17,781 nt of DNA from a virus (lineage: Duplodnaviria > Heunggongvirae > Uroviricota > Caudoviricetes): IMG/VR virus record IMGVR_UViG_2681813004_000011; one strand, 5' to 3'. Position 1 is the first letter of the stretch. Every line of letters starts with the position of its first letter. Below, piece after piece: positions 16,695 through 17,781 of the stretch. The translations under genes were made by a program, and so were the position numbers. Under the pieces are notes generated by a model. The model worked only from the letters and a program-made list of their open reading frames with translations. It was not told the origin of the DNA and searched no databases.

Positions 16695-17684
16695 CTAAAT
16701 ACGCACTTTAAGATAAGTCAGCCCCGGATGAAGCCAGTAAGCCGGCACTTTTTTAAAGGGTGGAGTATTAAAATCACGAAGAAGAGCCTCCCGCACAATT
16801 GCATCCTTATCAGCACCACTGGCCAGCGCTTCAATCTCAGCGGCTACCTGAAGATATCCCATGCAACGACCAATGCACTTCATCAGCCCCTGCTTTTTAT
16901 TGTTCTTCAGGTAATCAATGGCAAATTCAATGAGCTCCTCACTGTGCTGGTGCGATGGCGGTGTTACTTTTCCATTTTCTGAGATGGTTATTTTCCCAGC
17001 ATCACCGGATACAACAAAGGATGGCCGGTTACACTCCCATTCCAGGTCACTGAAATTATCATTATGAATACTGAAACACTCTGCGAGATTTCTGCTCATC
17101 ACTTTCCGGCAATAATCGTAAAACGCAGCAAACTGCTCATCGCGGCGTTTTTTTTCAGGCTGCTGAAGATGCTCTTTCAACCATGAAGCGCAGCTTAGAT
17201 TCGCCGCGCGATCAGGAATAGCTTCTTTCATTTCGTCTGCTGCAAGCACCTCATTTTTTGTTGGGGTGCTTTTTTTCAATTCAGCGATATAGCACTCCAG
17301 TTTTTCAATACGCGATTCAACATCATCTTTTTCTGACCGCAGTGTTGACGGCGGCATCTTCAGAGAACAAGTAATTCTTCCCGATAGCTTTCCTTTGTAG
17401 GTTATCAATACATCCTGCGCATCTAAAATTACGGGGCGCTTTTCCGGTGACGGTTCATCCCCTTCGCATAACCCGGCAACAATATCCATGAAAAACTGCT
17501 TCGCCTGTTTTTTCGCCTCAGCTTCGTAGAACTCCAGCGTGGCACCTTCAGTACGGTCAAGACTAATCGCCACATGTGGCAACAACAACGACGGATGCCC
17601 GCCAATTTCAAGTGCCACAGTAACAGCAATCTTATCCGGGTAATTATTTATCTCTTTAACAACCAGTTCGTATTTTTTCTTCAT
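16695..17684 (-). CDS. Hypothetical protein (329 aa) inserted between holin and endolysin; function unknown
   Basis: Long ORF with a GGGGAGA SD. Its ATG is 4 nt downstream of the holin stop. The region looks AT-rich relative to the flanking phage genes, by eye. No motif I can assign from sequence alone. Confidence 0.6.
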   Translation of the reverse strand: MKKKYELVVKEINNYPDKIAVTVALEIGGHPSLLLPHVAISLDRTEGATLEFYEAEAKKQAKQFFMDIVAGLCEGDEPSPEKRPVILDAQDVLITYKGKLSGRITCSLKMPPSTLRSEKDDVESRIEKLECYIAELKKSTPTKNEVLAADEMKEAIPDRAANLSCASWLKEHLQQPEKKRRDEQFAAFYDYCRKVMSRNLAECFSIHNDNFSDLEWECNRPSFVVSGDAGKITISENGKVTPPSHQHSEELIEFAIDYLKNNKKQGLMKCIGRCMGYLQVAAEIEALASGADKDAIVREALLRDFNTPPFKKVPAYWLHPGLTYLKVRI

Positions 17685-17688
17685 CGCT

Positions 17689-17781
17689 TTAGTCTCCCCG
17701 CGCCGTCTTACGGCGGTCCTCCCTGATTTTGAAATACAGGTTAGTCAGATACGTCAGCAGGCCAAACAGCAGACTCCCCAG
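17689..17781 (-). CDS. S: Holin, C-terminal fragment (phage 21 S / EssD-type pinholin); gene runs off the window's right edge
   Basis: Reverse complement translates ...[34 protein letters not shown], nearly identical to the C-terminus of the phage 21 S / DLP12 EssD holin as recalled (...[30 protein letters not shown]). Confidence 0.8.

Follow-up and report, generated by a model that had tools for sequence, protein, structure and literature searches.

A long form of the YdfR (DUF1327) family between the holin and endolysin genes of an Escherichia coli lambdoid prophage

Introduction

The lysis cassette at one end of the tailed-phage record IMGVR_UViG_2681813004_000011 raises the question of what the 329-aa gene is that separates the holin gene (S) from the endolysin gene (R), and what its product might do. 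The whole stretch of DNA analysed, 17,781 nucleotides long, is referred to as the window. A first-pass annotation, made from the letters alone, had described this gene as unrecognised, had considered cargo at this position unusual and had proposed a lysis regulator, an anti-phage gene or a host-modifying moron. Here we report that neither the 329-aa gene nor its S-R position is new and that the family has already been catalogued. The analysis is of value mainly as a correction, since such a gene is routinely found in the lysis cassettes of E. coli prophages.

Layout of the lysis cassette

The features of the cassette, all on the minus strand, are as follows.

17689..17781, minus strand: 3' end of a class II (S21-type) pinholin gene, truncated where the window ends; last 30 codons, stop codon TAA at 17689-17691
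17694..17697, minus strand: Shine-Dalgarno sequence GGAG in the 3' part of the holin gene, 9 nt upstream of the start codon of the 329-aa ORF; read from the sequence
16695..17684, minus strand: 329-aa YdfR-family (DUF1327) long-form gene; Pfam, PHROG and NCBI matches
16659..16694, minus strand: AT-rich 36-nt spacer ahead of R, no obvious Shine-Dalgarno sequence; read from the sequence
16125..16658, minus strand: R, an R21-type SAR endolysin, 177-aa lysozyme; PF00959 (E 2e-24), phrog_7 endolysin, Gly/Ala-rich SAR-type N-terminus
15359..15826, minus strand: Rz i-spanin; PF03245 (E 1.5e-48)
15421-15606, minus strand: Rz1 o-spanin embedded in Rz; ORF with lipobox

The flanking genes are the pinholin and SAR endolysin that had been named before. 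On one side, the translated upstream reading frame terminates in an S21-type class II holin C-terminus, and full-length homologous genes, which encode 71 aa and match PF04971, carry the annotation class II holin; on the other, a PF00959 lysozyme carries the SAR-type N-terminus. The ORF in between is real, as supported by its Pfam (E 7e-39) and PHROG (E 2e-179) matches, a cluster of 648 members and a dN/dS of 0.25. It occupies 16695-17684, so that the span of 16695-17691 given in the first-pass annotation, for which no strand was stated, was right at one end and at the other included seven extra bases, namely the 4-nt spacer and the holin stop.

The holin stop TAA (17689-17691) is followed by AGCG and then by the ATG of the 329-aa ORF at 17682-17684, which agrees with the earlier description of a start 4 nt past the holin stop with its own Shine-Dalgarno sequence. 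With this 4-nt gap and a GGAG that lies within the holin gene, the ORF is predicted to be expressed only with the late (Q-antiterminated) transcript, alongside the holin; its expression should thus fall in the late lytic phase. The gene is without a promoter of its own, and promoter-like sites showed no excess. The GC comparison suggested in the first-pass annotation confirmed that the ORF is AT-rich, with a GC content of 45.4% (GC3 44%) against 54.1% for R, 55.6% for Rz and 57-60% for the structural genes.

The encoded protein has a mass of 37 kDa and contains nine cysteines. No 19-residue stretch exceeds a Kyte-Doolittle hydropathy of 1.09 and no transmembrane segment was detected, so a soluble protein is expected, in line with the earlier impression of a soluble-looking, Cys-containing product. 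The product is cytoplasmic and modular.

Family identity and spread

Judged by its profile matches, the 329-aa protein is a long form of the YdfR/DUF1327 family and not a non-member. DUF1327 (PF07041) scores 132.4 bits (cut-off 25; E 7e-39) over aa 1-101, which align to profile positions 1-89 of 93, and PHROG 1085 matches the protein end to end (aa 1-329 against profile positions 1-296 of 296; E 1.9e-179). Furthermore, NCBI holds the exact 329-aa sequence, in a 90%-identity cluster of 648 members under the names 'YdfR family protein' and 'DUF1327 domain-containing protein'. The label 'unrecognised' therefore had to be dropped. DUF1327 proteins are characterised as single-domain proteins of about 100-115 aa encoded in the late region of lambdoid prophages beside holin and lysozyme genes; the anatomy of the window agrees with this location, and the protein departs from the expected size, having 329 aa of which DUF1327 makes up only the first third. 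We regard it as practically certain that the gene is a YdfR/DUF1327 family member and an ordinary occupant of the S-R slot.

Of 5426 complete E. coli genomes, 1538 (28%) contained related DNA, 491 of them with at least 80% coverage, and positive genomes carried it at a median of two and a maximum of eight places. A prophage of E. coli MB06102 shares 99.8% identity with the window. The family is a narrow one: when 1.84 billion representative proteins were scanned in full with HMMER, only 72 matched, and a scan for the C-terminal motif described below, using one genome per species, yielded three loci, all in Escherichia or Shigella. YdfR/DUF1327 (PHROG 1085) genes are dispensable late accessory genes carried by lambdoid prophages in E. 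coli, Shigella and Salmonella. The family is very common and found in many Stx phages; its members share a transcript with the lysis genes and, where the prophage is an Stx phage, with stx as well.

Domain architecture

The architecture was derived from alignments and from an AlphaFold2 model that was built with 64 relatives. The following parts were distinguished.

17460..17684, minus strand: N-terminal DUF1327 domain, aa 1-75; three beta strands and a long helix, AlphaFold2 pLDDT 70-93
17331..17459, minus strand: low-confidence linker, aa 76-118; pLDDT 25-40, kept in short N-only members such as the 115-aa ORF of phage H-19B
17049..17330, minus strand: helical spacer, probably coiled-coil, aa 119-212; AlphaFold2 helices 122-138 and 165-209, low pLDDT
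16698..17048, minus strand: conserved C-terminal domain, aa 213-329; beta hairpins 223-241 and three helices 245-305, pLDDT 75-93 over aa 220-305

In the spacer, a leucine-zipper-like heptad (I125/L128/I132/L135) can be read from the sequence, and family members give weak coiled-coil Pfam matches; the spacer is probably oligomerising. According to the alignment, a 36-aa insert within it (aa 141-176) is present only in some variants. Within the family, conservation is strongest in the C-terminal domain. This domain carries the motif H247...GRCMGxLQVAAEIE...DNPPFK..W..PG..YLK.R., and its invariant residues in the alignments include H247, L259, G272, G276, L278, Q279, A282, P309 and K311; in the Pfam search, no family covered this domain. 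It was also found without DUF1327, in proteins of 185 and 213 aa that occupy the same slot. The family as a whole is a mosaic of three modules, the N-domain, the helical spacer and the C-domain, which occur in many length variants.

The YdfR protein of E. coli K-12 resembles the window protein in its homologous N-domain and in the position of its gene, 4 nt after a class II holin gene and ahead of a lysozyme gene. In contrast to the window protein, which adds the helical spacer and the C-domain, it has only 103 aa, comprising the N-domain and a short helix. K-12 YdfR is most readily understood as the short form, with the N-domain alone, of a larger protein of two domains; the most strongly conserved portion of that protein, the C-domain, has no Pfam entry. 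Other PHROG 1085 long forms, such as BCI50300.1 of the Stx2a phage Stx2_95 (329 aa) and gp05 of the Stx2 phage 86 (268 aa), differ from the window protein by module swaps and the 36-aa spacer insert and not in kind. The protein sequence of BCI50300.1 is 93% identical to that of the window protein, and its gene has the same neighbours and is likewise separated from R by 36 nt.

Occupancy of the slot between holin and endolysin

Homologues at the same S-R junction, for which the first-pass annotation had proposed to look, are present in several known phages and prophages. In the cryptic prophage Qin of E. coli K-12, essQ is followed after 4 nt by ydfR (b1555) and then by the lysozyme gene rrrQ. 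The slot holds a 329-aa family gene in Stx2_95, a 268-aa form in phage 86 and a 211-aa form in PhiR5_1, and the 399-nt S-R gap of phage H-19B contains a 115-aa family member. To this we added a sample of 80 IMG/VR loci with an endolysin at least 94% identical to R of the window, 76 of which contain both S and R. In this sample, which is skewed toward R alleles near that of the window, the junction was filled in 65 of 76 cassettes, nearly always by a YdfR-family member, and R followed S directly (gap 1-4 nt) in the other 11. The occupants comprised N-domain-only proteins of 89-265 aa, C-domain-only proteins of 185 or 213 aa and proteins of 268-329 aa with both domains. Cargo at the S-R junction is the rule and not the exception in these prophages, contrary to what had been assumed.

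In all cassette classes, the gene after S starts 0-4 nt past the S stop and uses GGGGAGAG at the 3' end of S. This sequence serves R in insert-free cassettes; in occupied cassettes the YdfR-family gene takes that place. Among the IMG/VR loci L020-L099, R of direct S-R cassettes begins with MSRK or MSK and has its Shine-Dalgarno sequence in the S 3' end. R of occupied cassettes begins with MNTK or MNAK, preceded by an AT-rich leader (...GATAAATATCC ATG or ...TTTAATATATCC ATG) in which no Shine-Dalgarno sequence is obvious. Given these differences in leader and ribosome binding site, translation of R may differ between direct and occupied cassettes.

Relatives in Salmonella prophages

A profile search revealed Salmonella enterica prophage proteins of 250-340 aa with 26-30% identity to the window protein over about 94% of its length and the same three-part architecture. 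These proteins, for example P0197, P0204 and P0212, share the C-terminal motif as well. Their genes differ from that of the window in position: they are found between Q and S, ahead of the holin gene and beside HicAB and antirepressor genes, are not coupled to the holin, and are separated from it by a convergent ORF of about 100 aa, and the holins belong to varied families. This location suggests that the constant trait of the family is that its genes belong to the late operon close to those for lysis, and not that they are coupled to the holin, and it argues against an obligate S-R partnership.

The convergent ORF is a 105-aa phrog_1853 gene after P0197 and P0212 and a different 98-aa ORF after P0204. 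The phrog_1853 ORF is homologous to one that follows some E. coli copies, e.g. gp06 of phage 86. More generally, this ORF (about 105 aa, no Pfam match) lies convergent and directly downstream of many C-domain-containing members in E. coli and Salmonella, as in L005 (4652-4966, minus strand), L002 (4094-4408, plus strand), L012 (4986-5303, minus strand) and L014 (4809-5126, minus strand). It may be a functional partner of the YdfR-family protein. The window has no such partner, as only 36 nt separate the 329-aa gene from R. The family member of PhiR5_1 is followed by another convergent ORF (phrog_2572, weak DUF1823 match), and that of L010 by an unassigned convergent ORF of 98 aa.

Selection and frameshifts

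Comparison with the Stx2_95 copy gave a dN/dS of 0.25 for the whole gene, 0.19 for the N-domain, 0.17 for the C-domain and 0.38 for aa 76-140; R gave 0.10 in the same comparison. These values indicate purifying selection on the 329-aa gene. The window copy is intact and full-length, as are 40 of the 60 closest full-length copies in complete genomes. The remaining 20 are 1-2 nt longer or shorter and appear in the annotation as split genes. The first-pass annotation had named frameshifted, non-conserved homologues as evidence that would speak against its reading; frameshifted homologues are indeed common, but family members are nevertheless conserved and subject to purifying selection.

The indels were mapped in nine frameshifted copies. 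Most lie at two poly-A tracts, where +1 and -1 frameshifts arose independently in several copies that are unrelated or otherwise almost identical.

17148..17155, coding (minus) strand: A8 tract, ORF nt 530-537, codons EKK
17270..17276, coding (minus) strand: A7 tract, ORF nt 409-415

The A8 tract is A9 in MB06102, in the IMG/VR locus L020 and in the unrelated strain 2013C-3264, and A7 in NZRM4169. The A7 tract is A6, and the gene hence frameshifted, in 2015C-3163 and JB2. Frameshifts outside homopolymers were found in CE10 (-1 at nt 482) and STEC299 (-2 at nt 603). The frameshifts thus go back to at least five independent events, of which two did not involve a homopolymer. Some of the homopolymer length differences could be assembly errors; however, the same A9 allele across the assemblies checked and the two events outside homopolymers indicate that much of the frameshifting is real. 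As all mapped indels fall between the two domains, a truncated N-only product would remain. The A7 and A8 tracts could be slippage hot spots, could act as a switch between long and short forms, or could in part reflect assembly errors.

Searches for function and the RNase E lead

None of the features of canonical lysis components was found in the 329-aa protein, that is, no transmembrane segment, no muralytic domain and no lipoprotein or spanin signature; in particular, there was no lysozyme, peptidase or Rz Pfam match and no lipobox. PADLOC-DB v2, which covers defence systems described up to 2023, returned no defence family at E values up to 1. Sequence and profile searches of the PDB gave nothing below an E value of 0.05, and a Foldseek search of the model against BFVD and the PDB gave no match at E <= 0.001.

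Several phages modulate RNase E or the degradosome, namely through T7 gp0.7, T4 Srd and phiKZ Dip, and the host proteins RapZ and RraA bind the N-terminal domain of RNase E. Sequence, profile and structure searches revealed no likeness in sequence or fold between the window protein and any known RNase E regulator, whether RraA, RraB, RapZ, Dip, Srd or gp0.7. A possible analogy is functional only; it arises from the single experimental lead, a report on YdfR and RNase E (PMC13232886, RNA Biol 2026), and an effect on RNase E activity is putative even for YdfR itself. In that study, a two-hybrid screen with RNase G as bait recovered three identical clones of ydfR codons 1-72, which gave a stronger signal with RNase E constructs. 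In two-hybrid assays, YdfR(1-72) was positive with both Rne(1-597) and Rng, and full-length T25-YdfR scored only with Rne(1-597). Strep-YdfR co-purified Rne(1-598) together with DNase-resistant nucleic acid in vivo; as this was done without nuclease treatment, an RNA bridge between YdfR and Rne is possible. Overproduction of YdfR altered few transcripts and left growth unaffected (PMC13232886). The further phenotypes on record are weak; one is a three-fold increase in the streptomycin MIC upon ydfR overexpression.

Discussion

As the best explanation overall we tentatively favour a dispensable late accessory gene of the YdfR family, the N-domain of which would dock to RNase E or RNA, although we would not be surprised to see it replaced. 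According to this model, the 329-aa protein would be made late, together with the holin, from the Q-antiterminated transcript. Its N-domain would dock to the catalytic N-terminal half of host RNase E and/or to RNA, as reported for YdfR 1-72, and the docked protein would adjust RNA decay late in infection. It might, for instance, alter the stability of the long transcript made late in infection, on which the lysis genes and, in Stx phages, also stx are located. The protein would not be a component of the lysis machinery; the placement in Salmonella, the 11 of 76 cassettes without the gene and the frameshifts in one third of the closest copies all count against such a role.

The RNase E or RNA-decay mechanism itself is the more doubtful part of this explanation. 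Binding has been reported only for the 103-aa K-12 YdfR, to which the N-domain of the window protein is 41% identical over aa 1-74, so that its transfer to the long form would rest on this similarity. Furthermore, the N-domain is acidic (pI 5.05), which is unusual for an RNA binder. The model also leaves unexplained the C-domain, the most strongly conserved part of the family, which occurs without the N-domain as well. It may be speculated that in full-length proteins DUF1327 docks RNase E, the C-domain re-programmes the decay of late transcripts and the poly-A tracts are slippage-prone switches between the long and the N-only form; we consider this extended version a long shot. If true, it would tie toxin yield and lysis to degradosome control, as the late transcript of Stx phages comprises stx, lysis and morphogenesis genes.

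An unlikely alternative is a moron engaged in conflict, either in superinfection exclusion or abortive infection or as an anti-defence factor that aids the induced phage. Such a role would fit a gene that is AT-rich relative to its flanks, shows extreme mosaicism and modularity with many length variants, and is confined to prophages of few enterobacterial genera. The Salmonella copies even lie in the Q-to-S moron zone beside HicAB and antirepressor genes, and members of the family are often paired with the convergent phrog_1853 gene, which is possibly expressed in the lysogen. However, this partner is absent from the window, no PADLOC model matched, and dN/dS values of 0.17-0.25 reflect purifying and not diversifying selection. 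Expression tied to the holin would be compatible with an anti-defence or other function during lytic growth, but speaks against protection of the lysogen.

We deem it less probable still that the protein is a cytoplasmic regulator of lysis timing, which would bind either the pinholin, at its basic C-terminal tail, or the membrane-tethered SAR endolysin, or which would act merely through occupancy of the slot, lowering or delaying translation of R. T4 RIII provides a precedent as a small soluble phage protein that binds the holin T as a cytoplasmic antiholin cofactor; the window protein has no homology to it, and family members are uncoupled from the holin in Salmonella. A regulatory role is suggested by the holin-coupled position within the E. 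coli lysis cassette and by the way in which the gene takes over the Shine-Dalgarno sequence and start position of R, leaving R with an AT-rich leader and no obvious Shine-Dalgarno sequence. It is weakened by the lack of a transmembrane segment in the 329-aa protein, by the Salmonella homologues upstream of different holin families, by the interchange of N-only, C-only and two-domain forms in the slot, and by the absence of the gene from 11 of 76 cassettes and its frameshifts in about one third of close copies. A deletion of K-12 ydfR is listed, in the account given in PMC13232886 of Paradis-Bleau 2014, as having scored in an envelope-integrity screen; this phenotype may be a polar effect on rrrQ, and overproduction of YdfR had no effect on growth (PMC13232886).

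Least of all do we expect a remnant without current function, kept by linkage to the lysis genes and decaying in many prophages: the 20 frameshifted copies with their independent events, the 103-aa N-terminal version that K-12 retains and the frequent pseudogene annotation of long forms by the NCBI pipeline point in that direction, but the two-domain architecture and strict C-terminal motif are kept between E. coli and Salmonella at 26-30% identity, dN/dS is low throughout (0.17-0.25), 40 of 60 close copies and that of the window are intact, and the pseudogene flags fall on intact ORFs, too.

Annotation of related and neighbouring genes

The NCBI pipeline often mislabels intact long forms as truncated pseudogenes. 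PGAP calls long YdfR-family ORFs a 336-nt 'incomplete, missing C-terminus' pseudogene (L017, L018, L019 and L100-L105) and puts this flag even on the intact ORFs of L019 (3001-3891, 296 aa) and L105 (1501-2490, 329 aa). On such intact long forms the label is an annotation artefact. For frameshifted copies, PGAP adds a separate 'hypothetical protein' for the remainder. In phage H-19B (AF034975), the lysis region is annotated with S, R and Rz only, and the 115-aa DUF1327 ORF (L003, 1555-1902, minus strand) is unannotated.

Further observations concern the genes downstream of R in the window. A terminator-like hairpin of 14 bp that contains GC pairs (AAAACCCCG...CGGGGTTTT; 16002-16034, minus strand) and has a weak T tail only lies just downstream of R, ahead of a 57-aa ORF (15828-16001, minus strand; phrog_6632) with a hydrophobic C-terminal half that fills the R-Rz interval. 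Elsewhere this interval contains an antirepressor gene, as in phage 86, or other small ORFs; since its content varies, it is a second cargo slot within the lysis cassette. Downstream of Rz, between the lysis cassette and the HNH and terminase genes, a 113-aa ORF (14694-15035, minus strand) combines a lipoprotein-like N-terminus with a TonB C-terminal domain (PF03544, E 6e-15). It is named 'TonB family protein' by NCBI and 'Rz-like spanin' (phrog_1267) by PHROGs, the latter of which looks mislabelled.
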